Assembly: GCA_947165365.1 (NCBI GenBank)
Contig: CAMVAF010000001.1
Coordinates: 17,133-81,132, forward strand
DNA from: an uncultured Clostridia bacterium
GTDB lineage: Bacteria; Bacillota_I; Bacilli_A; RF39; UBA660
DNA: 64,000 nucleotides
Reading direction: 5' to 3'
How positions within the stretch are numbered: position 1 is the first letter of the stretch; every line of letters starts with the position of its first letter. The position numbers and the translations under genes were made by a program. Under the pieces are notes generated by a model. The model ran no database searches, was not told where the DNA came from, and saw only the letters and a program-made list of their open reading frames with translations. This document shows positions 9,127-31,544 of the stretch, piece after piece.

Positions 9127-9290
9127 ACAAAAAAAATCCAGAAAATCGAAAGCCGGACAATAAAACCCGCGTCGCCACGAGGTGGGTGTCCATAATTAAT
9201 CATTAGGATCCTTAGGAACTCACACTAAGTATTCAACACAGATTAATGCTCCTGACTCCCGTAATATATTTTTAGTCGGTTTTATAACCA
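9127..9290 (-). promoter_or_regulatory. Structured 5' leader with terminator; candidate ydaO/yuaA-class (c-di-AMP) riboswitch
   Basis: This is a GC-rich island in AT-rich DNA. On the minus strand, a closing helix AUAAAACC (9279-9286) / GGUUUUAU (9160-9167) encloses ACGGGAGUCAGGAGCAUUAAUCUG ... GGACACCCACCUCGUGGCG. UCCGG-loop-CUGGA followed by U8 (9127-9158) comes next. The motifs resemble ACGG(A/G)G..., G..UUAAUC and CACCC...CUCGU..GC of ydaO aptamers as I recall them. Confidence 0.35.
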
Positions 9291-9389
9291 TGCACTTTCA
9301 TATCTTCTAGACACTTATAATATATCATATTTTTTTATTATTTTCTATATATTTTACAAAAAAACTTTAATTTGTCACAGATTTTACAT

Positions 9390-13743: not shown

Positions 13744-14734
13744 TTTCTTTCTTTTTGCATATTCTTTTTCTTTTAATTTTAATCCATATTTCGGTTATTA
13801 AAAAATCAAATAATAATGATACAAGAAAACTAATAATTAATATCACTAACATTGTAAGAACAACATTAAGCGCTTTAATATCAAACAAGTTAATAGTATC
13901 TAAATCTTTAATTAAAAATATTAATAAAATATTAATAATAGTTATAACAATTGCATATATACTAGCTTCTTTAACATATCTTGTAAATCTTTTTTTCTTA
14001 CTTTCAACTTGCAAATAAAAATTATTTTCATTAGCTAAATTAACTCTATATTTTCGAAAAATATTCTTAAAAAAATTAGTAAATTTATTTTGTTTTTTAC
14101 TCTTATCTTCTAATGTTTTTTCTTCTTTTATCTCTTCCTTTTTAGGTAATGTTTCATCTTCTTTATTAATTTCATTTAATTCTATTTTTTCCTGCGTTTT
14201 TACTTTAGTAGTACGATACCTTTGTTGTGCTTTTTCATATTTTTTTCGATTAATTTCTTTTTGTGTTAATTTTTTAGGGACAATATCAGTTGTATTAGAT
14301 AACTTTTTAGGTTCTATTATTCCTGTATTATCTAAATCATTTACTTTATCTTTTAAAATAGTTTCTTCTTCATTTTTTACAGATTGCTTCTTAACTTTTT
14401 TTATAGGTATTTTAGTATTTGTTTTATCAAGAATATTATCATTTATTTTTACCTCATCCTCGATTGTTAAAATTTTTTTAGGAGTCTTGCTTGTTTTTTT
14501 TGTTGCTTTTTTTATTTCAATCGAATCTTCTAGTACAAGAACTTTTTTTGATTTATTGCTTTTTGGTAAAGGGTTTTTATTTACTTTTTTAGAAGTTACC
14601 GTTTTACTCGTTGCTTTTTTAGTAGTAGTTTTACTTCCTTTACTTTTAGATTCTACTTTATTATTAACCTTTGATTTTCTTTCAGCAGTATTTTTCTTTT
14701 TATTATTATCCATATTATCCCTCTTTTCGTCCAT
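13724..14734 (-). CDS. Lys-rich low-complexity protein with C-terminal TM segments
   Basis: The N-terminus has long K/T/S-rich tracts (KKKNTAERKSKVNNKVESKSKGSK...). The C-terminus has two hydrophobic helices. It overlaps the sufB start by 20 nt. Confidence 0.5.
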   Translation of the reverse strand: MDEKRDNMDNNKKKNTAERKSKVNNKVESKSKGSKTTTKKATSKTVTSKKVNKNPLPKSNKSKKVLVLEDSIEIKKATKKTSKTPKKILTIEDEVKINDNILDKTNTKIPIKKVKKQSVKNEEETILKDKVNDLDNTGIIEPKKLSNTTDIVPKKLTQKEINRKKYEKAQQRYRTTKVKTQEKIELNEINKEDETLPKKEEIKEEKTLEDKSKKQNKFTNFFKNIFRKYRVNLANENNFYLQVESKKKRFTRYVKEASIYAIVITIINILLIFLIKDLDTINLFDIKALNVVLTMLVILIISFLVSLLFDFLITEIWIKIKRKRICKKKESEHRGD

Positions 14735-14760
14735 TTATATTATAAAATAAAACTTTAGAA

Positions 14761-14789
14761 TTGACAAGAAAAAAAACAAGTGTTATACT
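14761..14789 (+). promoter_or_regulatory. Sigma-A-type promoter of tRNA-Trp
   Basis: TTGACA (14761-14766), a 17-nt spacer, then TATACT (14784-14789), about 10 nt before the tRNA 5' end. Confidence 0.6.
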
Positions 14790-14799
14790 TATTTCTCGT

Positions 14800-14873
14800 A
14801 GGGGATTAGTTAAATGGTATAATAATGGTCTCCAAAACCACTGTTGGGAGTTCGATTCTCTCATCCCCTGCCA
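14800..14873 (+). tRNA. trnW: tRNA-Trp (anticodon CCA)
   Basis: AGGGGAT...ATCCCCT acceptor stem, anticodon loop CUCCAAA (CCA at 14832-14834), T-arm GGGAG-TTCGATT-CTCTC and an encoded CCA end. It is 74 nt and closely resembles B. subtilis tRNA-Trp. Confidence 0.93.
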
Positions 14874-14886
14874 TTTGAATATTAAA

Positions 14887-14915
14887 AACACTAACAATCA
14901 AGTTAGTGTTTTTTC
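14887..14915 (+). terminator. Rho-independent terminator of tRNA-Trp
   Basis: AACACTAAC-aatcaa-GTTAGTGTT followed by TTTT. Confidence 0.6.
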
Positions 14916-14928
14916 ATATTAATCTATG

Positions 14929-15153
14929 CTATCTAATTTTTCTATTTAATAAATATTGTATTTGTTCAATACTTCTTTTAGTACCATATTCATCATACAT
15001 ATATCGTAACATAATCATTGGATTAAAAATACCATAATCAAAGAAAACTTTTATACCATCATCCCCAACCATTGTACGTGTTTTCTTTACTAAATTAGAT
15101 ATTTGTTCAATAGTTCTTCTATTTCCTTTATTATCAAAAATAAATTCTTGCAT
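14929..15153 (-). CDS. Hypothetical protein (74 aa from first ATG; frame is open a further 41 codons upstream)
   Basis: This is the ORF-track ORF. The same frame is open from the TAG stop of the upstream gene (15277-15279) to this ATG, with no canonical start (see findings). Confidence 0.35.
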   Translation of the reverse strand: MQEFIFDNKGNRRTIEQISNLVKKTRTMVGDDGIKVFFDYGIFNPMIMLRYMYDEYGTKRSIEQIQYLLNRKIR

Positions 15154-15276
15154 GATATTAGGATCATTCCATCCAATACTATAAAATAATTTTAATTCAT
15201 CTACTGTATACCCTTCTTTATATACTTTAAATATACTACATTTTATATAAGCATCTTTCTTATTAATAATTAATAA

Positions 15277-17742
15277 CTATTTCCATTCACTACATGATGT
15301 TGAACCAGAATAATTAATTGTACATTTAACACCAAGTTTGTCTGTTCCTCCTGTATATAATTGTTTAGTTTTATTTAATTTATAGTAATATGATGATGAT
15401 TTAAGGAATGAATTGGAAGTAATAGATATAGAAGGCATTATAGCATATACACCACTTCTATTTAAATTAAGAGTCTTTAAAGCATCTAAAGAATTATTAA
15501 TTCCATGATGTGATTGTTGATATATTGTAATATACTTAATATTATCTCCTAATTTAGCTTTAATTGCTTTAGCAACATTCGTTTCTGATGCTACTTTAAC
15601 ACGTGGAAGCATAGTTGTAAATTTCTTTAAAGATGTATCATACTTTAAATTTTCATAAACTATTTGCGTCCCAGGTCCATAAATTGATTCACCTAAAGTA
15701 AATCCATATCCATTATTATCCAAATCTCCTGGAAAATACATATGCTTATTACTACCAGGTGTCTCTACAGAAGCTAAAACTGCTACAGAGTTTGCATTAG
15801 CATTACAAGGAACAACCTCTGCTGCCGATCCATCATCTTCTTCTTTTAAACAAGCATAAAAATATCTATTCATACCAGTACCACTTTTTTGTTCTGGTAA
15901 AGTTTTGGAATAATATAATTTAACATTAGGAAATGTACTACCATCAAAATAAGCATAATATCCACCAATTTTATCTGCATCACTTTTACTTGCGGTATAT
16001 CTAATGCTATATCCAGCTTTACCACTACATTCACTACTTTTATTTTTATAAACATCGTCTACATTATACAAATACATATGAAGATAATCTCCAACATTAA
16101 TTTTGTGTCCCTCTTTTAAATTATTGGTTGTTATTAATGTAGCGCCATTCAAATTTTTAGATATATTATTATAAACTTTTGGACTTAAACTTTCTTTTTT
16201 TACAACAACATTTTTTACAGAAATTTTACTATCATTAAGAATATTAAGAACATTTCCTGCATGATCTGAATGAGAATGAGATATAACCATATAATCAATT
16301 ACAACTGTTGATTTATTTTGTAATGCTTTTAATTGCGTATAAATATTATTTTTTATCTTAATATCATTAAAACCAGTATCATATAAAACATACTTATTAT
16401 CTCTTGTTTTAATAATAATCGCTTCACCATTAGATTTAGTATTAGTTGTATATTTAGAATTATTATGAACATTAATAAAATACACATTAACAATATCTTT
16501 GGTATTATTTACTAAAACTTTACAAGTTGCTGTCTTTCCATTATTTGATTTTGCTGTTATTGTTATAACACCTGCTTTTAATCCTTTTACAACTCCTTTA
16601 TTACTTACCGTTGCAACACTCGTATTACTACTTGTCCAAGTTATTGTTTTATCAGTAGCATTAGATGGAGATACGGTAGCTGTTATATTTAATGTATCTC
16701 CAACATTAATTGTCTTATTGGTTGTAGAAAGAGTAATCCCTGTTACAGCAATAGTTTTTTTAGTTACAGTTACATTACATGTTGCTGTCTTTCCATTATT
16801 TGATTTCGCTGTTATTGTTACTGTTCCTTCTTTTATTCCTGTTACTTCTCCCTTACTATTAACGCTTGCAATACTTGTATTAGAACTTGTCCATGTTACT
16901 GTTTTATTACTAGCATTTGTTGGATTAATTGTTGCTGTTAATATTAATTTATTATCTACTTCAATAGATGCACTCGCTTTATCTAAAGTTATCCCTGTTA
17001 CATTTACTGTTGTATTTGTCGTTGTTTGTTTAGTTACAGTTACTTTACATGTTGCCGTCTTTCCATTATTTGATTTCGCTGTTATTGTTGCAACTCCTTC
17101 TTTTAGTCCTTTTATTAATCCATTACCTACTATTACGATACTTGTATCACTACTTGTCCATGTTACTGTTTTATTACTAGCATTAGAAGGATTTACTACA
17201 ACATTTAATGATAATCCTTCATTTACCTTTATTGTAGCACTACTAGGTATACTTATGGATGTTACTTCAACCGTTTGATTACTATTTGGTTTTGGTGTTA
17301 TCGTTGGGGTATTTGGTTTAGGTGTTACTACCGGATTACTTGGTTTTACTGTAGGTGTTGGTGTTAACGTTGGAGTATTTGGTTTAGGAGTTACTACTGG
17401 ATTACCTGGTTTTGCTGTAGGTGTTGGAGATATAGTTGTTTCATCCTTTTCATATACTGCAGTTATTTTAATACTTCCATCTATTTCTTCATTAATATCA
17501 AATTCTTTTCCATTATATTCCCAATACTTAAACGTATATCCTTCTTTATATGGAGCTTCTGGTAAACTACTTATTTTATTCTCTTCTTTAGTTAATTTAA
17601 CCTCTTCATATACTTTATTATCTACCATATATGTTACACTAATATTATTACTTTTATTTCCTATATTAAAAGCAAAATATCCACTGACACCTATTAATAT
17701 TATTAATATAACACTTGATAATGCCCTTAAATTTTCTTTCAT
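15277..17742 (-). CDS. Surface protein: signal anchor, Listeria-Bacteroides (Flg_new) repeat, P/T linker, 3x Big_2 Ig-like domains, metallo-beta-lactamase-fold domain
   Basis: YTFKYWEYNGKEFD (Flg_new-like), PTPTAKPGNPVVTPKPNTPT linker, three VTWTSS.TS...ITAKSNNGKTATC repeats and the MBL motif ISHSHSDHAGN. Confidence 0.75.
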   Translation of the reverse strand: MKENLRALSSVILIILIGVSGYFAFNIGNKSNNISVTYMVDNKVYEEVKLTKEENKISSLPEAPYKEGYTFKYWEYNGKEFDINEEIDGSIKITAVYEKDETTISPTPTAKPGNPVVTPKPNTPTLTPTPTVKPSNPVVTPKPNTPTITPKPNSNQTVEVTSISIPSSATIKVNEGLSLNVVVNPSNASNKTVTWTSSDTSIVIVGNGLIKGLKEGVATITAKSNNGKTATCKVTVTKQTTTNTTVNVTGITLDKASASIEVDNKLILTATINPTNASNKTVTWTSSNTSIASVNSKGEVTGIKEGTVTITAKSNNGKTATCNVTVTKKTIAVTGITLSTTNKTINVGDTLNITATVSPSNATDKTITWTSSNTSVATVSNKGVVKGLKAGVITITAKSNNGKTATCKVLVNNTKDIVNVYFINVHNNSKYTTNTKSNGEAIIIKTRDNKYVLYDTGFNDIKIKNNIYTQLKALQNKSTVVIDYMVISHSHSDHAGNVLNILNDSKISVKNVVVKKESLSPKVYNNISKNLNGATLITTNNLKEGHKINVGDYLHMYLYNVDDVYKNKSSECSGKAGYSIRYTASKSDADKIGGYYAYFDGSTFPNVKLYYSKTLPEQKSGTGMNRYFYACLKEEDDGSAAEVVPCNANANSVAVLASVETPGSNKHMYFPGDLDNNGYGFTLGESIYGPGTQIVYENLKYDTSLKKFTTMLPRVKVASETNVAKAIKAKLGDNIKYITIYQQSHHGINNSLDALKTLNLNRSGVYAIMPSISITSNSFLKSSSYYYKLNKTKQLYTGGTDKLGVKCTINYSGSTSCSEWK

Positions 17743-20121: not shown

Positions 20122-20150
20122 ATTTTAAAATGCTAGACTAATTTCTAGCA
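20122..20150 (-). terminator. Hairpin terminator overlapping the preA-like stop codon
   Basis: TGCTAGA-ctaatt-TCTAGCA (20131-20150), flanked by A/T runs on both sides, so possibly bidirectional. Confidence 0.5.
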
Positions 20151-21610
20151 TTTTTTTTTGAAATTCTTTTTTCAATAACACTTATAGCATTATTTGGACA
20201 AACTTGATTACATAAATGACAACCAACACATTTATTTCCGTCTAATTGTGGTTTTCTAGTCTCTAGTTCAAATTTTATGGCATCATGTCCACCATCTTTG
20301 CAAGAAATAAAACATCTTCCACAACCAACACATTTATCGTAATTAAATTTTGGAAACAAAATAGTATCTCTTTCTACCTTAGATGAATCAACAACACATT
20401 TTTTTGAAATACCAACAAAATCACTTACTTTATGAAAATTATTTTCTTTCATAAATATTTTCAACCCTAATATCAAATCATCTATTATCCTATAACCATA
20501 TTCCATAATAGCAGTTGTTAATTGTACATTAGTAGCACCTAATAGTAAAAATTCTATAGCATCTTTATATGTATAAATACCTCCTATTCCACTTATATCC
20601 ATATCATTTAAATGAGAATCTTTTGCCAGTTCCGTTACAAATCTTAATGCTATTGGCTTTACTGCTTTACCAGAATAACCTCCAATAAGAGTTTTACCAT
20701 TTACATCAGGTTCAGGAACTAAAGTATCAAAATTAATATTTGTAATACTTTTTATTGTATTAATTGCCGATATTCCATTAGCTCCACCTTTTTTTGCTGC
20801 TCTTGCTGGAATTCTAATATCAGTAATATTAGGAGTCATTTTAGCAATTATTGGTAAATTAGTTCCTCTTCTAGCAGCCATAGTATATTTTTTTACAACC
20901 AAAGGATCTTGTCCAATATCAGAACCTGTATTTTTTAATTCCATATTAGGACACGAAAAATTTAATTCAATAGCATCACAACCACTTTCAGTAACCATTT
21001 TTGCAATGGATTCCCATTCTTGTTCATTTCTTCCCATAATAGAAGCTATAATAATCCTATTAGGAAATTCTTTTTTTAGTTTTTTTAAACTGTTACAATC
21101 TTCTTCCAGTGTATGACTAGATAATTGTTCAATATTTTTAAAGCCCGCAAAAGAATTATCCCAATTTTTTAAAGTAGAAAATCTTGGCGATGCTTCATGG
21201 ATATCAAAGGGGCACATTGTTTTATAAACAATCCCAGCCCATCCTGCTTTTAAAGCTCTTTTACACATATCATATGTACTTCCAACTACTGAAGAAGAAA
21301 GCAAGAAAGGATTTATTAATTTAAGACCACAAAAAGTAGTTGTAATATCAACATCTAATTTTTTCTTTTTATATGATGTTTTAGCAACATTTTTTAATAT
21401 GTAATCAATATCTACTTTACAAGGACATTTAACACCACAATTATCATTTTTTTCTAAATAACTTTCCTTAATAAATAACTTTGCTCCTTTTAAATTATCA
21501 AATCTTAAAGCACGAATAATTCTTTCAGGATCCACATTTTTATATATTTTTTTACATGGTGCATCATAACAAAGAGCACATTTATGTATTTCTAAATCTA
21601 ATCGTTCCAT
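20138..21610 (-). CDS. preA: Dihydropyrimidine dehydrogenase PreA-like / DHODH-family flavoprotein with 2x[4Fe-4S] ferredoxin C-terminus
   Basis: DHOD-fold segments (LINPFLLSS, GCDAIELNFSCPN, GGYSGKAVKPIALR) are followed by CVGCGRCFISCKDGG and CVGCHLCNQVCP. Confidence 0.75.
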   Translation of the reverse strand: MERLDLEIHKCALCYDAPCKKIYKNVDPERIIRALRFDNLKGAKLFIKESYLEKNDNCGVKCPCKVDIDYILKNVAKTSYKKKKLDVDITTTFCGLKLINPFLLSSSVVGSTYDMCKRALKAGWAGIVYKTMCPFDIHEASPRFSTLKNWDNSFAGFKNIEQLSSHTLEEDCNSLKKLKKEFPNRIIIASIMGRNEQEWESIAKMVTESGCDAIELNFSCPNMELKNTGSDIGQDPLVVKKYTMAARRGTNLPIIAKMTPNITDIRIPARAAKKGGANGISAINTIKSITNINFDTLVPEPDVNGKTLIGGYSGKAVKPIALRFVTELAKDSHLNDMDISGIGGIYTYKDAIEFLLLGATNVQLTTAIMEYGYRIIDDLILGLKIFMKENNFHKVSDFVGISKKCVVDSSKVERDTILFPKFNYDKCVGCGRCFISCKDGGHDAIKFELETRKPQLDGNKCVGCHLCNQVCPNNAISVIEKRISKKNARN

Positions 21611-21847: not shown

Positions 21848-21895
21848 ATAAACAAAAATGAGAGATATCATTAATAAATATCTCTCTTCAGGGGG
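21848..21895. repeat. Hairpin core repeat, copy 1 (ATAAACAAAAATGAGAGATATCattaataaATATCTCTCTTCAGGGGG)
   Basis: This is one of three near-identical direct copies; the others are at 26618-26664 and 29285-29330. Read on the minus strand it is CCCCCUGAA, a 9-bp stem hairpin, then AUUUU(U)GUUU, which is a Rho-independent terminator shape. Confidence 0.9.
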
Positions 21896-21995: not shown

Positions 21996-22067
21996 AAAAT
22001 TCGTATGTAAAATCGTATGTACTTGTAAATTCTTACAGCTTTATTTTTGTATGTAAATTCGTATGTA
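21996..22067. repeat. Four direct copies of (AAAW)TCGTATGTA
   Basis: TCGTATGTA at 22001-22009, 22013-22021 and 22059-22067, and TTGTATGTA at 22047-22055. Confidence 0.85.
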
Positions 22068-22075
22068 TTTTTGCA

Positions 22076-22101
22076 TAGAAAAAGACCACATTGATGTGAT
22101 C
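22076..22101 (-). terminator. Terminator of the MTase-MTase-DUF262/HNH-HEPN operon
   Basis: Minus strand: GAUCACA-UCAA-UGUGGUC followed by UUUUUCU. It overlaps the TAG stop at 22101-22103. Confidence 0.6.
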
Positions 22102-22973
22102 TAGTTATCTATAATTGACATTAAGAAATCTACTAATGTTACTCCAGAATTATAATACAAAATTGCATGACTTTTTTCTAATGTTTCTCTTTTGTCACCT
22201 ACACCATGAGAATCACTATTTGCATTTCGCATTTCAGCAATTGAATCAATTATTGTTTCTAATCCTGAAAGAATTTTCTTAATTCTAACATCCATTGCTT
22301 TTTCTATATGCATATTATAATTGCTTTTAAACTCACTATACTCTGATTTAATATCACCACTGAAATTTTTATTAATGTTTTTTCTTTTTAATCCTTCTAT
22401 TAATACTTCTTCAACCATCGTTCTAATTTTGGTAATCGTACTATCATAGTCACCAACTTCAATATCATGCCATGCTTTTTTATACATCTTATATGCATAA
22501 TTCTTATTTAGTTTTTCTATATTTGAGCTGCTCACTTTGACTGTTTCGTCATTAATTGAAGTTAAAGAAAAAATATTACCATCATATTCTAGAGATACAT
22601 TTTCAAACATTAAATATCCGTTTATTTGCATAATAAATGATGTTTTCGTTTCATTATGTTTATATATCACATCATCAGAATCTAAACCTTTCAAATCTCT
22701 TTTAAAATGTTTTAAATCCAGTAGTAAATTAAAAAATTCATTTATCTTATCTTTTTCAATACAATATTCTAAAACCCTTGTCATAAGTTCTTTACGGCTA
22801 TTTGAGTCACTATAATCAAGATTTATGCCTAATTGCCTACCAAACTCACATATTTCTTTACCAGTCATGTATGGCATCCTAAGGGGCATAAATCCAAGAT
22901 ATGGTCTTAATTCTATATCACCAATCATACAAGCTATAATGTCTTTATCAAGTAATTTGTACCAATTTTGCAT
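22101..22973 (-). CDS. HEPN-domain protein of the Abi_C (AbiJ-like abortive infection) type
   Basis: The C-terminus has IAEMRNANSDSHGVG, an R-x6-H HEPN motif as in Abi_C proteins. The start lies 2 nt after the stop of the upstream nuclease gene. Confidence 0.6.
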   Translation of the reverse strand: MQNWYKLLDKDIIACMIGDIELRPYLGFMPLRMPYMTGKEICEFGRQLGINLDYSDSNSRKELMTRVLEYCIEKDKINEFFNLLLDLKHFKRDLKGLDSDDVIYKHNETKTSFIMQINGYLMFENVSLEYDGNIFSLTSINDETVKVSSSNIEKLNKNYAYKMYKKAWHDIEVGDYDSTITKIRTMVEEVLIEGLKRKNINKNFSGDIKSEYSEFKSNYNMHIEKAMDVRIKKILSGLETIIDSIAEMRNANSDSHGVGDKRETLEKSHAILYYNSGVTLVDFLMSIIDN

Positions 22974-22975
22974 AA

Positions 22976-24073
22976 TTATATTCCTGATTTTCTTCTATTA
23001 CACTCTCTACATAACATCTGGCAATTTTCAGAACTTGTTTTACCTCCTGCATGCCATGGAGTTATATGATCAGCTTCCATCTCCTCTATTTCAAAATGCT
23101 TACCACACATAGAACATATTCCATTTTGTCTCTCATATGCCTCTCTTTTTTGATTATCTGTAAATGCTCTAATATTCAAATGTTTCTCTTGACCAGTAAT
23201 CAAATATAAATATATACCTTTTTTACTTGTTACATCATCGTCAGACATTAACTCTACTACTCTTTTTTCAAGTTCATCAGTATTATATTTTTGGTCTTTA
23301 TATTTATTATATAAAATACCCCAATCAATACCTTTCATTTCTCGGCGATAATTTGGAAATAATCTATTGACCCAATCAATAACAGATTGAAAATAAACCC
23401 ACAATTCATTTGCATCTTCATCTTCTTGGTGAGCAGCCATATATTCCTTGATTATAGGAACACCATCACGATCAATAATCCATTTCAATGCAGTTTCTAA
23501 ATATTCTTGTCTAATAGTAACACCTGTTATATATTTTTCTGCAATTTGATATGCTGGGCAACCTGTCTTGCTAAAATGCCTTTTTGCATCGTACAACCAT
23601 TTACCAACAAATTGAGAATTTAATAATTCTTGATTAGTTAATTTTTCCCCAGCGATATTTATGATATTAAACCAATCTAGTTTTTCGGAAGGTGTTCCCT
23701 CACAAATATAAATCATAAGTTTGTAATCAAGTATTTTATCTTGTAAATCTTTTGGAAGATTTCCAAAAAATTTATAATCAACAGAAAAATCTCCATTAAC
23801 ATATTGACAAATACTTAAAGTCCTTTGCTGACCATCAAGCAACTCATACATATCTCTATCTTTGTTTTTACTCCAATACATAACATTTAATGGAAAATTT
23901 TTATTAATTGTATCAATTACTGCCTTTCTTTTTTCATCATCATAAATAAACTCTCTTTGAAATGGTGGTCTAATATCAAGCTTACCATCATAACCAACAA
24001 CACCATTTTCTTGGTCATTTTTATAATTTTTTACAACTTCTCTTACAGGGATTTCATGTAATACTATTTTCAT
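22976..24073 (-). CDS. DUF262 (ParB-like/GmrS-type) + HNH endonuclease fusion
   Basis: The N-terminus has PPFQREFIYDDEKRKAVIDTI...ELLDGQQRTLSI (DUF262 DGQQR motif). The C-terminus has CSMCGKHFEIEEMEADHITPWHAGGKTSSENCQMLCRECNRRK (HNH with a CxxC...CxxC zinc site). Its ATG overlaps the TGA of the upstream MTase (ATGA at 24070-24073). Confidence 0.85.
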   Translation of the reverse strand: MKIVLHEIPVREVVKNYKNDQENGVVGYDGKLDIRPPFQREFIYDDEKRKAVIDTINKNFPLNVMYWSKNKDRDMYELLDGQQRTLSICQYVNGDFSVDYKFFGNLPKDLQDKILDYKLMIYICEGTPSEKLDWFNIINIAGEKLTNQELLNSQFVGKWLYDAKRHFSKTGCPAYQIAEKYITGVTIRQEYLETALKWIIDRDGVPIIKEYMAAHQEDEDANELWVYFQSVIDWVNRLFPNYRREMKGIDWGILYNKYKDQKYNTDELEKRVVELMSDDDVTSKKGIYLYLITGQEKHLNIRAFTDNQKREAYERQNGICSMCGKHFEIEEMEADHITPWHAGGKTSSENCQMLCRECNRRKSGI

Positions 24074-25206
24074 TTTTCTACCTCCACCAATTTCACAAAT
24101 ATTCTATGATATCCTATATTCACATATCCATCTTTATCAATAAAACATGGTTTTGATTTTTGCAAGTTTCCTTTAGTTCTAACTTTACCTGAATTATATA
24201 TATCCATGAATTTTTTTGAAAAAGGATAACTTTCTATTCCAAATATTTCTATTGCTGAACTGCAACCTAATATATCAAACTGTTCAGGGGTATACTTATC
24301 CATAAATGTTATTGGAACACCCATTACTCCATCATAATCTTTTGGGATATCGTTTGTTTTATCAACATTTATAGCATCATAATTGTCATATTTTGGATAT
24401 AAATCCGCATTATATCTTTTGGATAAAATTAATTTATCATGTCTTTCTTTATAATCCAAATTTGTCCACCATCTTATGCCTTTAACACGAATATACTTTT
24501 TCCCATCATCATCAATTCTAAAACCTGCTGCCTTTAATGGGTATGTATCTGGAACTCTAAATTCTCTATCACCAGAATGAATTGAAGCACCCATCCATAC
24601 CATATTGTTTTTTAGCAAAGGAAAAAAATCTTTATATGTTATTGCATTTTGATTTCCAATTATGAGAAATTTCTTATTATATTTATTAAGTAAAGAAACG
24701 AATTCTCTAAACAAACTAAATGGCGGATTTGTTACAACTATGTCGCTTTCTTTCAATAATTCAACACATTCATCACTTCTACAATCTCCATCTCCTTTTA
24801 GTAAAGATAATGTATTTTTATTATTTTTTAGCAAAAATTCAACATCACTTAAATCAACAGCACCATCATTATTTGAATCTGGTATTTCTGATATAACAAT
24901 CTTATATGCCTTTTTATTCGTTTTTGGAATTGAATAATTCAAATCAAACAAAGATAATTGTTCTCCCATTATAGGTGAATTATCATAACATGTGCATATA
25001 AGTTTTTTTAATTTCAAAGTGTTAAAATTTAATGCAAAATATTTGAAGAAATTACTTTCAAAGGGATCATCACAATTACATAAAACAATTTTATCTTTAA
25101 AATACTCTTTATAGTATCTTAATTCATTCTCAATATCTGTTAATTGTGTATAGAATTCATCATCTTTATTTGATTTTGCTTTAGTTAATTCTCTCTTTTT
25201 AGACAT
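24070..25206 (-). CDS. N6-adenine DNA methyltransferase, EcoRI-methylase family (M2)
   Basis: KDDEFYTQLTDIENELRYYKEYFKDKIVLCNCDDPFESNFFKYF and VVTNPPFSLFREF (NPPF motif IV) resemble M.EcoRI as I recall it. The ORF-track start is 25212. ATG 25206 has better spacing to the GAGGTAG RBS. Confidence 0.85.
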   Translation of the reverse strand: MSKKRELTKAKSNKDDEFYTQLTDIENELRYYKEYFKDKIVLCNCDDPFESNFFKYFALNFNTLKLKKLICTCYDNSPIMGEQLSLFDLNYSIPKTNKKAYKIVISEIPDSNNDGAVDLSDVEFLLKNNKNTLSLLKGDGDCRSDECVELLKESDIVVTNPPFSLFREFVSLLNKYNKKFLIIGNQNAITYKDFFPLLKNNMVWMGASIHSGDREFRVPDTYPLKAAGFRIDDDGKKYIRVKGIRWWTNLDYKERHDKLILSKRYNADLYPKYDNYDAINVDKTNDIPKDYDGVMGVPITFMDKYTPEQFDILGCSSAIEIFGIESYPFSKKFMDIYNSGKVRTKGNLQKSKPCFIDKDGYVNIGYHRIFVKLVEVEK

Positions 25207-26350
25207 TTTCATCTACCTCATTTCTTTTCCTTATTATAATAACTCTTTTATACGGAATTGATGCTATTCCTTTACTTGAAATACAACAAGTTAATCTATT
25301 TCCAATTCTAATACTTCCAGTATTACCTTGTTTATAATACAAATCAACGAATTCTTTAGTCATTCCTTTCCATCCATCTGGCAATATATTAGCTTCAGCA
25401 CTACCTACAATTTTAAATTGATTAGGATTATATTTATCTAAAAAAGTAATTGGAACAGCAATGTAATCAAAGTAATTATCTGGTATATCATTATATGTCT
25501 CAACATTAATACCTTTGCAATTTTGAAGTTTTGGATATTTCTCTTCACTATATTCTTTATATAAAATTAAATAATCATTATGTTTTTCAACTGGCAAAGA
25601 AGTAAGCCAACAAGAAGAGGCAACTCTTACAAATTTTTTACCATTTTCAATCCTATGAAATTTTGGAGTATTATCTGGAACAGAGAAATACATTCCTACA
25701 TTAAAATTTGTATATCCTGTTCTTATTTTATCTTCCATGAACATTTTAAATACATCTTTATATGTAAGTGCATTAATATTACTGATTAACACAAAATCCT
25801 TATTGTATTGATTAATGAGTGATATAAATTCTCTAAATAGACTAAATGGTGGATTTGTTACAACAATATCCGATTCTTTTAAGAGTTCAACACATTCATC
25901 ACTTCTAAAATCACCATTTCCTTTTAATAAAGACAAACTATTATTTTCGTTCTCCTCAATAATAGATTTAATATCGATCAAATCAATTGCACCATCTTTA
26001 TTAAAATCATGTACACTACATATTTCAATTTTGTATGGTTTCTTTGAATCTTCTTTTTTTAAAACCAATCCTTTAACATCAAACAAAGATAATTGTTCAG
26101 TAATAATTGGTGAACCAGCATAGCAAGTACATATCATTTTTTTTAATCCAAGTGCATTAAAATTTAATGCAAAATACTTAAAAAAGTTGCTCTCATATGG
26201 GTCATCACAATTGCAAAATACTACTTTATTTTTAAAACAATTTTTATAATTACAAAGTTCTTTTTCAATATCTTCTAATCTTGTATAAAATTCATCCTTT
26301 TTAGTTTTTTTTGCTTCTGTGAGCATTTTATTAGTATTGTTATTTGCCAT
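25199..26350 (-). CDS. N6-adenine DNA methyltransferase, EcoRI-methylase family (M1), paralog of M2
   Basis: KKDEFYTRLEDIEKELCNYKNCFKNKVVFCNCDDPYESNFFKYF and VVTNPPFSLFREF. The ORF-track start is 26380. ATG 26350 (MANNNTNKM) follows a TAGGAGTAG RBS. Confidence 0.85.
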   Translation of the reverse strand: MANNNTNKMLTEAKKTKKDEFYTRLEDIEKELCNYKNCFKNKVVFCNCDDPYESNFFKYFALNFNALGLKKMICTCYAGSPIITEQLSLFDVKGLVLKKEDSKKPYKIEICSVHDFNKDGAIDLIDIKSIIEENENNSLSLLKGNGDFRSDECVELLKESDIVVTNPPFSLFREFISLINQYNKDFVLISNINALTYKDVFKMFMEDKIRTGYTNFNVGMYFSVPDNTPKFHRIENGKKFVRVASSCWLTSLPVEKHNDYLILYKEYSEEKYPKLQNCKGINVETYNDIPDNYFDYIAVPITFLDKYNPNQFKIVGSAEANILPDGWKGMTKEFVDLYYKQGNTGSIRIGNRLTCCISSKGIASIPYKRVIIIRKRNEVDENV

Positions 26351-26515
26351 TTTTATCACTACTCCTAAAAGAATTTTCAATTTCTGATAATATTATAACA
26401 TATTTTTTCAATTTCTTTGACTTCTATTTATATTTTTTGTTCTTATCGCACTGAAGAGTGCAAGAAATGTATTTTTTCTTTATTTTTCATTGGTTTTAGA
26501 AAGTCAAAATAAAAT

Positions 26516-26561
26516 TACATACGATTTACATACGAAAAAAATCGTATAAAATTCGTATGTA
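26516..26561. repeat. TCGTATGTA motif cluster in palindromic arrangement
   Basis: TACATACGA (reverse orientation) at 26516-26524 and 26527-26535, TCGTATA at 26542-26548 and TCGTATGTA at 26553-26561. Confidence 0.85.
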
Positions 26562-26617: not shown

Positions 26618-26664
26618 ATAAACAAAATGAGAGATATCGTTTATAAATATCTCTCTTCAGGGGG
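26618..26664. repeat. Hairpin core repeat, copy 2
   Basis: ATAAACAAAATGAGAGATATCgtttataaATATCTCTCTTCAGGGGG. Confidence 0.9.
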
Positions 26665-26769: not shown

Positions 26770-26789
26770 TGTGACCTAACTGTGACCTA
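26770..26789. repeat. Two direct copies of TGTGACCTA
   Basis: 26770-26778 and 26781-26789. A third copy is at 29218-29226. Confidence 0.8.
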
Positions 26790-26797
26790 GAAATATA

Positions 26798-28039
26798 TCA
26801 CAGTATTTTTTTAATATTATCTACTTTAATTACACCAGTGTTATTATTAATATAATTAATTATAGCTACATTACTGCAATTGTTTTTTAAATATAACTCG
26901 TAAACATCTAATAATGATTTAGTATCAATTATTAAAGTGTCTCTTTTTCTTGCCATTTCATCTTGCATTATATGTATTTCATTTCTTTCGTTAATATCTC
27001 TTGTTCTTTCATAGTTTATAATTAATAGTTTTCTAATTTCTTCTGTACTTCCCTCTTCTTGTAATTTATCTAAATATTTTGCATAATGTTCATCTAGCTG
27101 AGAAATAAATTCATTTTTTACATTACTAGTAACACCTTTTATTTCTCCAATATAAGTTATTTCATCTTTTTTAAAATTAAAATCTTCTTTTTTTTCATCA
27201 ATAAACTCTTTTAATGAAATATCAAAAATATCTTCAAGAATCTCGAATACGACCTTTACCAGTTCATCTGAATTTGTATATAAAATACTTTTATAATGTA
27301 AATTATTATCTAGTTTAATATTAGCCTTATCTATTTTTTCTTTTTCCTTTTTTATTTGTTCCTTTGATTTCTCCACATTTTTCATTTGCTCTTCGTCATC
27401 ATAAAACATATATTTTCTTACCCAATCAGGAACTTCATTTTTGTCTTTAATAATACCAATTAATCGCAAATATTCAAATAGTAACACATAACTATCATTT
27501 TTTATCAACTCTAAACTCGTAATTAATATTCTTTGTTTTTTTAAAGTTGTAATAGTTTCGCTAGTACTATGTGTTATTTCTTCGTAAGTACCATCATTTT
27601 TAAAGCCAAATGCAGAATTGCCAAACGTATCATTAATTTTTGTTTCATTATTTTCGTAAAATATTTTAATGCTTTGAATTGGAAGTAATACTTTTAATAT
27701 ATCTATAAATACGGGTAAATAGTTTTTTAGTTGATAATATTTGGTATTTTTATAGGTTGTACATGTAAACTCAATATTTTGTGGGAGACAAACCAAAATA
27801 TCGGCTTTTTTACTATTTTCAATCATTTCCCTAATACTACAAAAATCATTAATTAATGTTATATTCTTATTTGGATTATCAAAATTGGTATTTTTTAATA
27901 AATTTTCATATGACAAATCTATTATAACCAATTTATAGTTATCAAACGAATTCGGTGTATTATATGTAGTAATGTCAACATAATCTTTGTATATTTCTAG
28001 TTTCTTATACGAACTAGTAATTATTTGTATCGTATTCAT
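26798..28039 (-). CDS. Uncharacterised 413-aa protein: unknown N-domain, coiled coil, possible C-terminal PD-(D/E)xK nuclease fold
   Basis: This is a long clean ORF. A K/E-rich coiled coil spans about residues 212-245. EDFNFKKDEITYIGEIKG (D286 ... E299-x-K301) followed by Q314 fits the D...ExK...Q pattern of restriction-endonuclease-like folds. I cannot assign a family. Confidence 0.5.
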   Translation of the reverse strand: MNTIQIITSSYKKLEIYKDYVDITTYNTPNSFDNYKLVIIDLSYENLLKNTNFDNPNKNITLINDFCSIREMIENSKKADILVCLPQNIEFTCTTYKNTKYYQLKNYLPVFIDILKVLLPIQSIKIFYENNETKINDTFGNSAFGFKNDGTYEEITHSTSETITTLKKQRILITSLELIKNDSYVLLFEYLRLIGIIKDKNEVPDWVRKYMFYDDEEQMKNVEKSKEQIKKEKEKIDKANIKLDNNLHYKSILYTNSDELVKVVFEILEDIFDISLKEFIDEKKEDFNFKKDEITYIGEIKGVTSNVKNEFISQLDEHYAKYLDKLQEEGSTEEIRKLLIINYERTRDINERNEIHIMQDEMARKRDTLIIDTKSLLDVYELYLKNNCSNVAIINYINNNTGVIKVDNIKKIL

Positions 28040-28128
28040 TTAAATTTCACCTCTTAATTCAATAAAGATTACTATTAAAATTTGAATATTTTAATAAAAA
28101 TTTATATATACTATTAAAGACAGAGTTA

Positions 28129-28157
28129 TTGACAAATTCTAAAATATTTGTTATATT
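28129..28157 (+). promoter_or_regulatory. Sigma-A-type promoter of the plus-strand small RNA candidate
   Basis: TTGACA (28129-28134), a 17-nt spacer, then TATATT (28152-28157). Confidence 0.5.
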
Positions 28158-28163
28158 AACTAA

Positions 28164-28236
28164 TGTCAAAGCAATTAAGTTTGCTTGGGGTTCGTGGTAT
28201 CGCGGACGGTAAAAACTGGTTTATCCAGTTTTTATT
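28164..28236 (+). ncRNA. Candidate ~70-nt small RNA between the 413-aa gene and the DUF3800 gene
   Basis: A consensus promoter lies upstream. Hairpin AAGCAA-uuaagu-UUGCUU is followed by the GC-rich hairpin GUUCG-uggguaucg-like loop-CGGAC within GGGGUUCGUGGUAUCGCGGACGGUA. Terminator AAAACUGG-uuuau-CCAGUUUUU then overlaps the DUF3800 stop codon. Confidence 0.4.
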
Positions 28237-29089
28237 TTTGCTCTGGAGGGAATAATTTTATTCCCTTATTTATATAATTTGGATATCCTGCAATCTTATC
28301 TTCAAATGTTAAAAATGCTTTATCTTTGATATCTCTTTTAACATATTTATGTATTGGATATGAGAATAAATCAGTTATTTCTAATCCTACATATGTTGAA
28401 CTATATTCTTCATTCCACTTCGGATTAAAATATACTCCATCAATTTTTGTTTTAAGTTCTCTTGAACTTATTTTTTTGGTTCCAGTTGTATTAATAACCT
28501 TACTAATATGATCTAATAGCTCTCTATCTTCATCTTTACCTCTTGCTTCAAGCATAATAACGCCTTTTTTATTGTTCTTTGTTTCATAAATATATCTTTC
28601 AAGTAAAAAGTCAAATGCCACATTATAAACATTATGAGTATATCCTCTTTTTAAATATTCGTAAAGATTAATGCTTATAGATATTACTTTACACTGAATA
28701 TCCTTCATTACATTAGATAAATCTACCATAAACTCATTATAATCAATTACATTGTCATTAAACGCACCATCATGTTTTCTAATATCACGTGAATGAAAAC
28801 ATACTGCACGATTACTTTTTGATTTAGAATCATAAAACATACCATCTTTCCAATATTTATTCTTTAATAACTCAATTGACTGCTTTGCATGTAAATAATT
28901 GGATTTTGTAAAAATACAGCCTGTAATCGTGAAATATTTATCATCTTCTGATAATTCTTTATCATTGGATATTTGCTTTAATACATACGTTAAATTACTA
29001 CTACTACCATTTTCATCAATACACATTGCATAATCTATATCTTTTCGCATTAATAATATTTTTGTAGGTTTATCATACCACGTTGACAT
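28232..29089 (-). CDS. DUF3800-family protein
   Basis: AMCIDENGSS (N-terminal DExG-type motif), CFHSRDIRKH, LEARGKDEDRELL and GLEITDLFSYPI match the conserved blocks I recall for DUF3800. Confidence 0.65.
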   Translation of the reverse strand: MSTWYDKPTKILLMRKDIDYAMCIDENGSSSNLTYVLKQISNDKELSEDDKYFTITGCIFTKSNYLHAKQSIELLKNKYWKDGMFYDSKSKSNRAVCFHSRDIRKHDGAFNDNVIDYNEFMVDLSNVMKDIQCKVISISINLYEYLKRGYTHNVYNVAFDFLLERYIYETKNNKKGVIMLEARGKDEDRELLDHISKVINTTGTKKISSRELKTKIDGVYFNPKWNEEYSSTYVGLEITDLFSYPIHKYVKRDIKDKAFLTFEDKIAGYPNYINKGIKLFPPEQK

Positions 29090-29217: not shown

Positions 29218-29233
29218 TGTGACCTAGCGGTCA
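29218..29233. repeat. TGTGACCTA copy embedded in the palindrome TGACC-tag-cGGTCA
   Basis: 29218-29226 matches the two copies at 26770-26789. It lies in the promoter region upstream of the DUF3800 gene. Confidence 0.75.
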
Positions 29234-29282: not shown

Positions 29283-29390
29283 AGACAAACAAAATGAGAG
29301 ATATCGTTTATAATATCTCTCTTCAGGGGGTTTTGGTTGAATACACCTTCCTAATATTTGAAGGTGCCTGTATGATATCTTCTACCATAC
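29283..29390 (-). ncRNA. Candidate ~105-nt small transcript downstream of recG that ends in hairpin core copy 3
   Basis: Minus-strand promoter: TTGACT (29420-29425), a 17-nt spacer, then TATGAT (29397-29402). The transcript has hairpins GUAUG..CAUAC and CACCUUC-aaauauuag-GAAGGUG, then CCCCCUGAA and the core terminator. Confidence 0.3.
29285..29330. repeat. Hairpin core repeat, copy 3
   Basis: ACAAACAAAATGAGAGATATCgtttataATATCTCTCTTCAGGGGG. Confidence 0.9.
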
Positions 29391-29454
29391 AAATAAATCA
29401 TAATATAATTTTTTCTATAAGTCAATTATTTTTTTAAAATTTTACAATATTTTT

Positions 29455-31452
29455 TTAATCAGTGTCAACCATCTCTAAAATTTTATTTTTTATTATCATA
29501 TTTTCTGGTTCATTTATCTTTAAAAATTCCTTTGCATCAACATTAGCATATTCTAGTATTTTAAAGTCTTCTCTTAAGTTTGCAATCTTAAAATACATAT
29601 CACCACTCTGTCTTGTACCAAATAAATCTCCACTACCTCTTAATTTAAAATCTTCTTCGGCTATTTTAAAGCCATCATTTGTTTCCTCTAATATTTTAAG
29701 TCTTTCGGTTTCTGATTTACTAATTAAAATACAAGTTGATTTTATATTACCTCGTCCTACTCTTCCTCTTAACTGATGTAGTGTTGATAATCCAAACATA
29801 TTAGCATCAAAAATAATCATCATACTAGCATTACTAACATCAACACCTACTTCAATAACAGTAGTACTAATTAAAATATTAATTTCATTATTTTTAAATT
29901 TATCCATAATATTATCTTTTTCTTTATTTGACATTTTACCATGCAACATATCTACTTTAACATTAACTTTACTAAAGGCTTTTTTAAACTCATCTTTTAA
30001 ATTAATAACACTAGTTAAATCACTTTCACCTTCATTTTCAATTAAAGGAGATACGACATATATTTGATGATTTTCTTTTAATTCTTCATACATTAAATTT
30101 AATACTTCACTTATCTGATCTTCTTTTCTAATTATTGTTTCTACAGGTATTCTTCCTTTTGGCATTTCTTTAATAATCGAAATATCCATATCACCATAAA
30201 TAGTTAAAGCAAAAGTACGAGGTATTGGTGTTGCACTCATATATAGTACATCAGGTGTAATCCCTTTATTTTTTAATAAAGCTCTTTGATTTACTCCAAA
30301 TCTATGTTGTTCATCAGTAACAACTAACCCTAAATTATAATATTTAACACTTTCTTGAATAATAGCATGTGTACCTATTAAAATGTCTATTTTATTATTA
30401 ATTAAATCACTATATATTTCTTCTTTTTCTTTTTTAGTTAAAGATCCAATAAGTAATCTTACAGTACATTTACCATCTAATATTTTAGATATATTATTAA
30501 AGTGTTGGGTTGCTAATATTTCTGTTGGTGCCATTAAAGCACTTTGATAACCTGATAATTTATTAAAATACATTGCAGCAATTGATACAATCGTTTTTCC
30601 ACTACCAACATCACCTTGAAGTAAGCGATTCATCATCTTATTAGAATTCATATCACTAACAATTTCTTCAATAACTTTCTCTTGATCATTTGTTAATTTA
30701 AATGGTAATAATTGATAAAAAGAATTAATATCATTTTTCGTAATTTTTCTTTCTATACCTAATTCTTTTTTCTTAATACTTTTTAAATAATTAATTTTTA
30801 CCATAAAACAAAATAATTCTTCATATTTCATTCTTTTAATCATTTCAGAAAGTTTTGTTTCATTAGGTGGATTATGAATAATATTCAAAGCAATATTTTT
30901 TTTAATATCAAATGGTGGATATTTATCTTTTAAATAATCTGGAATATAATCCATAATATCTTTACCATAATCCATAAGAGCATTATTAATATAGGTATGA
31001 ATATTTTTATTACTTAAACCACTTGTTAAATGATATACTGGTTCAATCTTTGTTTCATTATTTAATATTCCAAATTTAATATCACTAGCTGTTAAAATAT
31101 TTTTTTCTTTTTCATATTTACCAATAACAATAATTCTTGTTCCTACTTTTAAATTAGGTTTCATAAAAGCTCTATTAAAAATAGTTATTCCAACTACTCC
31201 ATCTTTATATGATAATCTAAAATTCATTTTATTAAGTTTAGCATTAAATCTTAATACAAGAGGAACACTATCAACTACACCATCAATTATTACACGATCT
31301 TCTATTGTTGCTTCGGATAAATCACTTCTTTTTAAAATATCATATCTTGATGGATAATATGTTAATAAATCTTCTATCGTATTTATTTCTAATTTATTTA
31401 ATAATAATTCTGATTTTGGACCTATTCCTTTAACATCTTTTAATTCTCTCAT
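29455..31452 (-). CDS. recG: ATP-dependent DNA helicase RecG
   Basis: Wedge/OB N-terminal domain, helicase motifs LLQGDVGSGKT, VTDEQHRFG and HGKM, and TTVIEVGVDV. The ORF-track start is 31473. ATG 31452 follows a GGAGTAG RBS. Confidence 0.92.
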   Translation of the reverse strand: MRELKDVKGIGPKSELLLNKLEINTIEDLLTYYPSRYDILKRSDLSEATIEDRVIIDGVVDSVPLVLRFNAKLNKMNFRLSYKDGVVGITIFNRAFMKPNLKVGTRIIVIGKYEKEKNILTASDIKFGILNNETKIEPVYHLTSGLSNKNIHTYINNALMDYGKDIMDYIPDYLKDKYPPFDIKKNIALNIIHNPPNETKLSEMIKRMKYEELFCFMVKINYLKSIKKKELGIERKITKNDINSFYQLLPFKLTNDQEKVIEEIVSDMNSNKMMNRLLQGDVGSGKTIVSIAAMYFNKLSGYQSALMAPTEILATQHFNNISKILDGKCTVRLLIGSLTKKEKEEIYSDLINNKIDILIGTHAIIQESVKYYNLGLVVTDEQHRFGVNQRALLKNKGITPDVLYMSATPIPRTFALTIYGDMDISIIKEMPKGRIPVETIIRKEDQISEVLNLMYEELKENHQIYVVSPLIENEGESDLTSVINLKDEFKKAFSKVNVKVDMLHGKMSNKEKDNIMDKFKNNEINILISTTVIEVGVDVSNASMMIIFDANMFGLSTLHQLRGRVGRGNIKSTCILISKSETERLKILEETNDGFKIAEEDFKLRGSGDLFGTRQSGDMYFKIANLREDFKILEYANVDAKEFLKINEPENMIIKNKILEMVDTD

Positions 31453-31544
31453 ATCTACTCCAAATATAAGCATATTATATCAAAAATTATCTTAAAAGTA
31501 AATTTAGTTGACAATAATCTTTAATCTATTTTTCTTTTTCACAA

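Follow-up and report, generated by a model that had tools for sequence, protein, structure and literature searches.

A 64,000-nucleotide (nt) stretch of DNA from an uncultured Clostridia bacterium (contig CAMVAF010000001.1, positions 17,133 to 81,132; the window) holds four genes that lie head to tail on the minus strand, between recG (29455–31473) and a preA-like gene (20138–21610). The first two, M1 and M2, encode predicted EcoRI-family DNA methylases: M1 occupies 25199–26350 and has 383 amino acids (aa) from the ATG at 26350, with an alternative TTG start at 26380, and M2 occupies 24070–25206 and has 378 aa, or 380 aa when counted from an in-frame ATG at 25212. They are followed by the gene for a 365-aa nuclease with a DUF262 and an HNH domain (22976–24073) and by the gene for a 290-aa HEPN protein homologous to AbiJ (22101–22973).

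We read the junctions between these genes directly. The M1 stop codon TAA occupies 25201–25199, and a GAGGT ribosome-binding site lies 8 nt 5′ of the second M2 ATG (25206), a spacing that fits only that ATG. Two metagenome contigs carry the identical sequence, and independent gene calls made on them likewise give M2 as 378 aa; on both grounds the M2 start is placed at 25206, so that the M1/M2 overlap is 8 nt long (ATGTCTAA). M2 and the nuclease gene share the tetranucleotide ATGA (24073–24070) with GGAGGT upstream, and the nuclease stop codon (22978–22976) is separated by a 2-nt gap from the HEPN ATG at 22973. The order M1, M2, nuclease, AbiJ and the overlapping junctions mean that both methylases are translated before the nuclease.

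Transcription of the operon begins at a single extended −10 promoter upstream of M1 (TGtTATAAT, a perfect match; 26392–26400, minus strand), which a consensus promoter scan did not return because it has no good −35 element, and an AGGAG ribosome-binding site (about 26365–26361, minus strand) precedes the M1 ATG by ∼10 nt. The promoter leader and TGTGTTATAAT are kept in the related cassettes at loci L082 and L179. An intrinsic terminator at 22083–22102 (minus strand; 8-bp stem, 4-nt loop and the T-run TTTTT) overlaps the stop codon of the HEPN gene and is kept in L082. The original prediction, made from the letters of the stretch, had proposed one co-transcribed and translationally coupled restriction-modification (RM) and abortive infection (Abi) operon with an 8-nt overlap, an ATGA junction and a 2-nt gap, preceded by an extended −10 promoter and closed by a terminator, and the layout, the junctions and both signals agree with it.

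Families of the methylases and the nuclease

M1 and M2 match the Pfam family EcoRI_methylase (PF13651) with E values of 5e-117 (391 bits) and 3.5e-142 (474 bits), respectively, against a cut-off of 26.4, and the PADLOC profile MTase_II (PDLC03297) matches both as well (E 1.6e-96 for M1 and 1.3e-123 for M2). The catalytic NPPF motif is present in each, within TNPPFSLFREF. With these matches, the motif and the homology to M.EcoRI described below, the earlier assignment of two EcoRI-family methylases stands, and both proteins classify by sequence as predicted gamma-class N6-adenine DNA methyltransferases of this family.

The nuclease consists of an N-terminal DUF262/GmrSD_N domain (ParB/Srx-like; Pfam E 4.9e-17), a helical middle and a C-terminal zinc-ribbon HNH domain (PF01844, E 5.3e-15, with a further match to HNH_5), the domain pair that had been named for it beforehand. 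The PADLOC profile REase_II (PDLC03418) covers nearly the whole protein (E 1.9e-150; residues 1–363 on profile positions 1–370 of 372). Among 32 nuclease homologues the DUF262 motifs Q39-R40, D80-G-Q-Q-R84 and F135/N139 are invariant, as are the HNH residues D335-H336, N350 and N359, and in the zinc-ribbon CxxC pairs C320, C323 and C355 are invariant and C358 nearly so. Conservation is even along the protein, at about 60–65% identity across phyla. The family carries the RefSeq/NCBI label ‘DUF262 domain-containing protein’.

The nuclease is encoded with an EcoRI-family methylase across genomes

Grouped at 90% identity, the nuclease family comprises more than 8000 clusters; at 50% identity and E ≤ 1e-30 there are 506, most of them 360–420 aa long. 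Scanning one genome per species gave 79 nuclease loci with nuclease identities of 58–70%, which span Firmicutes, Bacteroidota, Planctomycetota, Patescibacteria, Elusimicrobia, Spirochaetes, Proteobacteria and archaea. In every locus with enough flank (73 of 73) one EcoRI-family methylase gene shares the strand of the nuclease gene and lies no more than 2.3 kb from it, and the 6 of the 79 loci without a methylase match are all cut at most 250 nt from the nuclease start. The methylase gene abuts or overlaps the nuclease gene in most of the 73, with gaps of −11, −4 or +1 nt; in one locus the nuclease gene comes first, and in another the methylase gene is 2.3 kb upstream. Small plasmids of Lactobacillus, Enterococcus and Staphylococcaceae carry the pair as well, as do E. 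faecium plasmids (nuclease identity 42%) and the Flavobacterium phage laban6-1 (nuclease identity 38%). As a methylase stands beside the nuclease in all informative loci, the coupling is a defining trait of the nuclease family and not a local oddity. The idea that hard-wired coupling of a DUF262 nuclease to methylases is unusual therefore had to be given up: it is the rule in the informative genome loci, on the plasmids and in the phage, and among the PADLOC profiles for Type II restriction endonucleases there is already one for the nuclease. It is unusual only against the characterised DUF262 enzymes GmrSD, BrxU and SspE.

The arrangement found here, a Type II methylase gene adjoining a restriction endonuclease gene, is also the one by which PADLOC operationally recognises a Type II RM system. 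We thus read the operon as a Type II-style RM system of EcoRI-family methylase and DUF262-HNH nuclease, here with two methylases and with an attached AbiJ, and put the probability of this reading at about 75%.

GmrSD, BrxU and SspE have in common with our nuclease an N-terminal DUF262 with the QR, DGQQR and FxxxN motifs, as these motifs are defined (PMC11411939), and a C-terminal His-Me-finger nuclease. The DGQQR pocket of GmrSD, BrxU, SspE and TgvAB binds and hydrolyses nucleotides and controls the nuclease. However, those enzymes carry DUF1524 and are roughly 600–700 aa long, whereas the present protein has a zinc-ribbon HNH domain (PF01844) and 365 aa; it gave no Pfam match to DUF1524, and a profile search of PDB sequences with the nuclease gave no match to BrxU or SspE. 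It could still be argued that the DUF262-HNH protein depends on modification, as a GmrSD-like enzyme of Type IV, and has unrelated methylases for neighbours only because they occupy the same defence island, since all characterised DUF262 nucleases (GmrSD, BrxU, SspE and TgvAB) sense modified DNA and the DUF262 motifs are intact in the nuclease. We consider this extremely improbable: every informative locus shows the methylase linkage, with reading frames that overlap in different phyla, on plasmids and in a phage, the C-terminal domain is of another family, the protein has about half the size of GmrSD, and the full-length match to the PADLOC Type II profile stands against a weak match to mREase_IV (E 0.0011). 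Of the features that mark a GmrSD-type Type IV enzyme the nuclease has the DUF262 motifs; it has neither DUF1524 nor the separation from a cognate methylase. Judged by its sequence, it does not belong to the GmrSD family in the strict sense, since DUF1524 is absent, the size is halved and a methylase always accompanies it. Being always encoded with a methylase, the nuclease presumably attacks unmodified DNA, in contrast to the modified DNA attacked by GmrSD, BrxU and SspE.

Three further arrangements turned up among the relatives. One contig of a Clostridia metagenome-assembled genome from sheep rumen (L010) holds two complete methylase-nuclease modules of this family, 7.9 kb apart. On the L. 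plantarum plasmid p9 (L098), a 700-aa protein annotated dcm joins an EcoRI-family methylase domain to a C5 cytosine methylase, and the next genes are hypothetical genes and not a DUF262 nuclease gene, which indicates that EcoRI-family methylases have other partners too. Finally, a single gene call of 688 aa (P0169) unites EcoRI_methylase, GmrSD_N and HNH in one polypeptide, and is either a form of this system in which methylase and nuclease are naturally fused or an artefact of reading through overlapping genes.

The two methylases are diverged homologues

M1 and M2 are homologous from end to end with an overall identity of 51%, and this identity is 64% over residues 1–200, 41% over residues 201–320 and 22% in the tail. 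The original prediction had described them as alike in the N-terminal part and different in the C-terminal halves; they are instead diverged homologues along their whole length. M2 is the canonical partner of the nuclease, and M1, the distal copy, is the more divergent of the two. Where the nuclease has a sole methylase partner this is most commonly M2-like, and an M1-type methylase fills that place in L001, L037, L051, L057, L068, L070 and L092. There are no tandem methylases among the 79 genome loci; apart from our operon we found them only in L081, where the nuclease is 95% identical to ours and the methylase genes again overlap by 8 nt, and here both copies are M2-like.

It had been suggested that M1 and M2 methylate an asymmetric site, one strand each as in type IIS systems, in which case both would be needed for host protection. 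Such a model would account for two intact tandem methylases which differ most in residues 201–320 and in the tail, and for the existence of a second tandem locus; type IIS systems with two strand-specific methylases likewise have two methylase genes before one nuclease gene. However, if two strand-specific enzymes were required they should be inherited together with the nuclease, and this is not what the relatives show: all 73 informative loci have a single methylase per nuclease, M1-type and M2-type methylases are each found alone with the same nuclease, so that in this family one methylase of either type is enough, and the copies in L081 are both M2-like, so that there is no fixed pairing of M1 with M2. 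In addition, M1 and M2 each show homology along their whole length to M.EcoRI, an enzyme that modifies a palindrome on both of its strands. The single-methylase relatives and the pair of M2-like copies in L081 together argue against a fixed strand-specific pair, and we regard the asymmetric-site model as very unlikely. The explanation that we favour over it is that M1 and M2 were united by recombination between sister cassettes, as the sequences suggest; the methylase genes of such cassettes are 74–78% identical at the DNA level over hundreds of bases.

Relation to EcoRI and the likely recognition site

A tblastn search of plasmids with M2 gave matches on small E. coli and Klebsiella plasmids, beside genes annotated ‘type-2 restriction enzyme EcoRI’. 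The genuine M.EcoRI (326 aa, encoded beside R.EcoRI) is 50% identical to M2 (residues 9–315) and 43% identical to M1 over the whole length of M.EcoRI. When we aligned 69 nuclease-paired methylases, residues 1–320 were conserved and variation was free only in the C-terminal tail. Over residues 201–320 the methylases form four or more classes with a mutual identity of about 50%; M.EcoRI stands at the same distance from each class (44–51% identity) and so lies within the diversity of the family. The simplest reading of these comparisons is that the whole methylase family, M1 and M2 included, recognises GAATTC or a site close to it, and the DUF262-HNH nuclease would then be a non-homologous counterpart of R.EcoRI.

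The likeness to EcoRI is therefore one of methylases and of general design. M1 and M2 are true relatives of M.EcoRI with a shared NPPF motif, and both systems are two-component methylase-plus-nuclease modules which are often plasmid-borne. The DUF262-HNH nuclease, in contrast, is unrelated to R.EcoRI, which is a PD-(D/E)XK enzyme. The gene order differs too, being nuclease then methylase on the EcoRI plasmid and methylase then nuclease, with an overlap, in the present family, and the second methylase and the AbiJ gene set our operon further apart.

Co-variation between methylase class and nuclease segments is weak everywhere (rho 0.05–0.28), which fits equally well with methylases that are all isospecific and with a methylase that supplies the specificity. 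According to the latter model the nuclease would have no sequence specificity of its own, the methylase would serve as specificity subunit in a manner resembling Type III or Type IIG enzymes, the ParB-like NTPase (nucleoside triphosphatase) would act as switch or clamp, and two methylases would give two specificities. No segment of the nuclease co-varies with the methylase mid-region classes, as this model would have it, and the even conservation of the nuclease across phyla, the strict adjacency and overlap of the genes and the existence of a methylase-DUF262-HNH fusion protein all point in the same direction. A Foldseek search likewise places the N-terminal half nearest to ParB/Noc CTPases, with sulfiredoxin also among its best matches, and gave Gme-HNH or Cap5 as best match of the C-terminus; these matches are weak (TM < 0.3), were obtained on a poor AlphaFold2 model and serve as hints only. 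On the other hand, methylase classes that are ∼50% identical to each other and to M.EcoRI may share one specificity, which would equally account for the absent co-variation, M.EcoRI works with an independent nuclease, and the fusion rests on the single gene call mentioned above. On balance we hold a specificity-giving methylase to be quite unlikely.

An AbiJ homologue closes the operon

The last gene product matches Pfam Abi_C (E 3.6e-16) and, from residue 3 to 288, the PADLOC profile AbiJ (positions 5–277 of 281, E 8.3e-58). Its HEPN motif is R249-x6-H256, and E247-M-R249..N252-S-D-S-H256 is invariant in five homologues. The protein, put forward originally as a HEPN/Abi_C protein, is thus more exactly a full-length AbiJ homologue. 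It has the full-length similarity and the C-terminal HEPN domain with an Rx4–6H motif that characterise AbiJ, and on this basis is predicted to be a metal-independent RNase toxin. With AbiJ of Lactococcus lactis, a single-gene abortive infection system, it has the full-length profile match, Abi_C and Rx6H in common; in our operon, however, the gene abuts a restriction nuclease gene inside an RM operon.

Close AbiJ relatives are rare and form five clusters. The gene lies 1–5 nt 3′ of this family's nuclease gene in L082, L090, L092 and L099, with AbiJ identities of 60–99%, and AbiJ after this nuclease is confined to a small clade. None of 79 more distant AbiJ relatives (30–49% identity) is found beside this nuclease. 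We searched 32 upstream neighbours of these distant relatives against Pfam, and most of the matches were to restriction-modification families: Methylase_S (6 proteins), Eco57I (4), N6_Mtase (3), HNH_2 (3), MmeI_Mtase (2), RE_AlwI (2), C5 methylase (1) and ResIII (1). This agrees with the survey of HEPN proteins by Anantharaman et al. (2013, PMC3710099), which lists AbiJ ‘solos’ within RM operons, reports operons that combine HEPN genes with ParB nucleases, ParB+HNH proteins and DNA methylases, and proposes a PrrC-like second line of defence for HEPN genes in RM operons. The original idea of an RNase as a second arm of the operon is plausible and in line with this published HEPN-RM association, and is hence not new (PMC3710099).

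Comparison with L082 places a recombination breakpoint between the nuclease gene and AbiJ. DNA identity between the two loci is 44–78% in the methylase gene and 78–88% in the nuclease gene, and leaps to 98–100% at the junction of nuclease and AbiJ, a level held through AbiJ (22101–22985). This sharp step indicates that the operon is a recent mosaic. AbiJ is dispensable for the RM module, and it may be functionally independent of it, a stand-alone Abi gene that was recombined into the 3′ end of the operon and borrows its promoter. The recombination break at the nuclease/AbiJ junction fits such an origin, Lactococcus AbiJ works as a single gene, and most nuclease relatives are without AbiJ. Against this, the 1–5 nt junction is kept at only 60–62% AbiJ identity in three further loci, the wider AbiJ family recurs just 3′ of diverse restriction-modification genes, and linkage of this kind has been interpreted as functional coupling (PMC3710099). 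We consider an independent AbiJ a serious possibility, if somewhat less probable than one that is coupled to restriction.

Proposed mode of action

If the operon is a Type II-style RM system with an attached AbiJ, the methylases would place N6-methyladenine (m6A) on host DNA at a short site, probably GAATTC or a closely related one, and M1 and M2 would be redundant or slightly different in specificity. The HNH site of the nuclease would cut DNA that is without this mark, as the linkage to a methylase in the 73 informative loci leads us to infer. From the intact QR/DGQQR/FxxxN pocket it would seem that cutting is gated by the binding of nucleotides, in the manner of GmrSD, BrxU and SspE. AbiJ would be a latent HEPN RNase forming a second line of defence, and in analogy to PrrC-EcoprrI it may be set free once the restriction arm is inhibited or has more to deal with than it can handle. 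The two systems are alike in having a HEPN RNase within an RM operon; they differ in that PrrC carries an ABC-ATPase N-terminal domain and has a Type Ic system as its partner.

A more far-reaching version of this scheme would make the nuclease a nucleotide-gated enzyme that attacks DNA without EcoRI-type m6A, a ‘reverse GmrSD’ and the commonest partner of EcoRI-like methylases, with AbiJ kept latent by the nuclease and firing when a phage blocks restriction, as PrrC does. The ParB/Srx-like domain may in that case read the absence of a modification and not its presence. Taken as a whole, this chain of events seems rather unlikely to us.

Several observations weigh against the reading as a Type II-style RM system with an attached AbiJ, or at least against parts of it. 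NCBIfam has no model for the nuclease family, and a search of the PDB returned only generic HNH matches and no solved structure of a nuclease relative (the methylases and AbiJ gave no PDB match). The AlphaFold2 model of the nuclease is poor (predicted local distance difference test score 64), having been computed from a shallow alignment in which the sequences share at least 73% identity. We found no description of this methylase-nuclease pair, or of the biochemistry of the nuclease, in the open-access literature. No relative of the nuclease could be linked to a biochemically characterised enzyme, and cleavage of unmethylated DNA, the recognition site and the dependence on nucleotides are therefore all inferred. 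The proposed site GAATTC occurs 11 times in the window against 19.2 expected (observed/expected ratio 0.57), which makes it the second most depleted 6-mer palindrome there and still only mildly under-represented, and in the pooled flanks of the 79 carrier loci (1 Mb) the ratio is 0.72, an unremarkable rank 26 of 64. Lastly, the nuclease relatives that have no AbiJ include the one in L081 that is 95% identical, L083 and the same-locus L179, so that AbiJ may have no partnership with the nuclease and be carried along independently.

The locus itself is an annotation-level result, as standard defence-finding profiles already recognise the RM and AbiJ parts and HEPN-RM linkage has been in the literature since 2013. 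The operon is not a new kind of system; it belongs to known systems and is unusual in its additions, a double methylase, which is rare, and an appended AbiJ. Its wider interest lies with the nuclease family, which is very large, extends across bacteria, archaea, plasmids and phages at ∼60% identity across phyla, and is the usual partner of methylases that are ∼50% identical to M.EcoRI. Should these nucleases prove to be nucleoside triphosphate (NTP)-dependent iso- or neoschizomers of EcoRI they would represent a new mechanistic class among Type II enzymes, and an NTP-dependent activity of the EcoRI type would widen what DUF262 domains can sense.

Cassette boundaries and neighbouring genes

The RM-AbiJ unit is a 4.8-kb mosaic cassette between hairpin repeats, in a variable spot. 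Its upstream boundary (26624–26664, minus strand) and its downstream boundary (21855–21895, minus strand) are direct repeats of one element, made up of CCCCCTGAAGAGAG, a stem-loop and a T-run, and a third copy lies downstream of recG (29291–29331). These three direct copies, of 41–50 nt, are the only ones in the window. They enclose two cassettes, namely a gene pair of DUF3800 and a 413-aa protein, and the RM-AbiJ operon, and the same hairpin element bounds related RM cassettes in L082, L088, L099 and L179–L181. Terminator-like hairpins are frequent in general here, with 8 in the 8-kb stretch around the operon against 1.3 expected. L179, from a related strain, encodes a preA-like protein at least 90% identical to ours and has, near the same gene, a version of the cassette with a single methylase and no AbiJ, and this difference is what identifies the spot as variable. 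An origin as an integron with attC sites or as an integrase-borne island was considered and rejected, as neither cassette contains a recombinase gene and the repeat looks like a plain terminator hairpin.

On the other side of the preA-like gene, L179 carries a further RM system (12555–16813 of that locus) with RE_AlwI, a D12-class methylase and a helix-turn-helix gene. The presence of this second system supports the view of the region as a defence hot spot.

Between the upstream hairpin repeat and the promoter lies a cluster of ACATACGA octamers in inverted arrangement (26517–26560), and three more octamers of this sequence (22001–22066, minus strand) lie just 3′ of the terminator. Of the window's seven copies, six lie at the flanks of the RM-AbiJ cassette, where 0.9 would be expected. 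L082 and L179 have retained the hairpin and the promoter leader as well as the ACATACGA clusters, and in L082 the motif is again present 3′ of AbiJ. The clusters could be operator or recombination sites.

The neighbouring cassette (26798–29089, minus strand) encodes the DUF3800 protein (28232–29089; Pfam E 5e-8) and the 413-aa protein, which has no match in Pfam, PADLOC, NCBIfam or PHROG. Three copies of TAGGTCACA flank this cassette (26770–26789 and 29218–29226). An unrelated DUF3800 gene also lies 3′ of the nuclease gene in L083. The DUF3800 and 413-aa genes may be an uncharacterised defence pair.

Just downstream of recG we found a small RNA candidate (29285–29430, minus strand), with a promoter TTGACT-17-TATGAT at 29425–29397. 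The candidate RNA is ∼105 nt long and folds into three hairpins (minimum free energy −33.3 kcal/mol, z −5.2), and its terminator, which is the recG-side copy of the hairpin repeat, is preceded by a C-rich single-stranded CAACCAAAACCCCCUGAAG. A similar arrangement of promoter and hairpins stands before the cassette in L082. Neither the cassette boundaries nor the recG-proximal hairpins with the candidate small RNA gave a match in Rfam; within the window, only a 6S RNA gene (9131–9316, minus strand) and a tRNA gene (14800–14870, plus strand) match Rfam above the gathering score.

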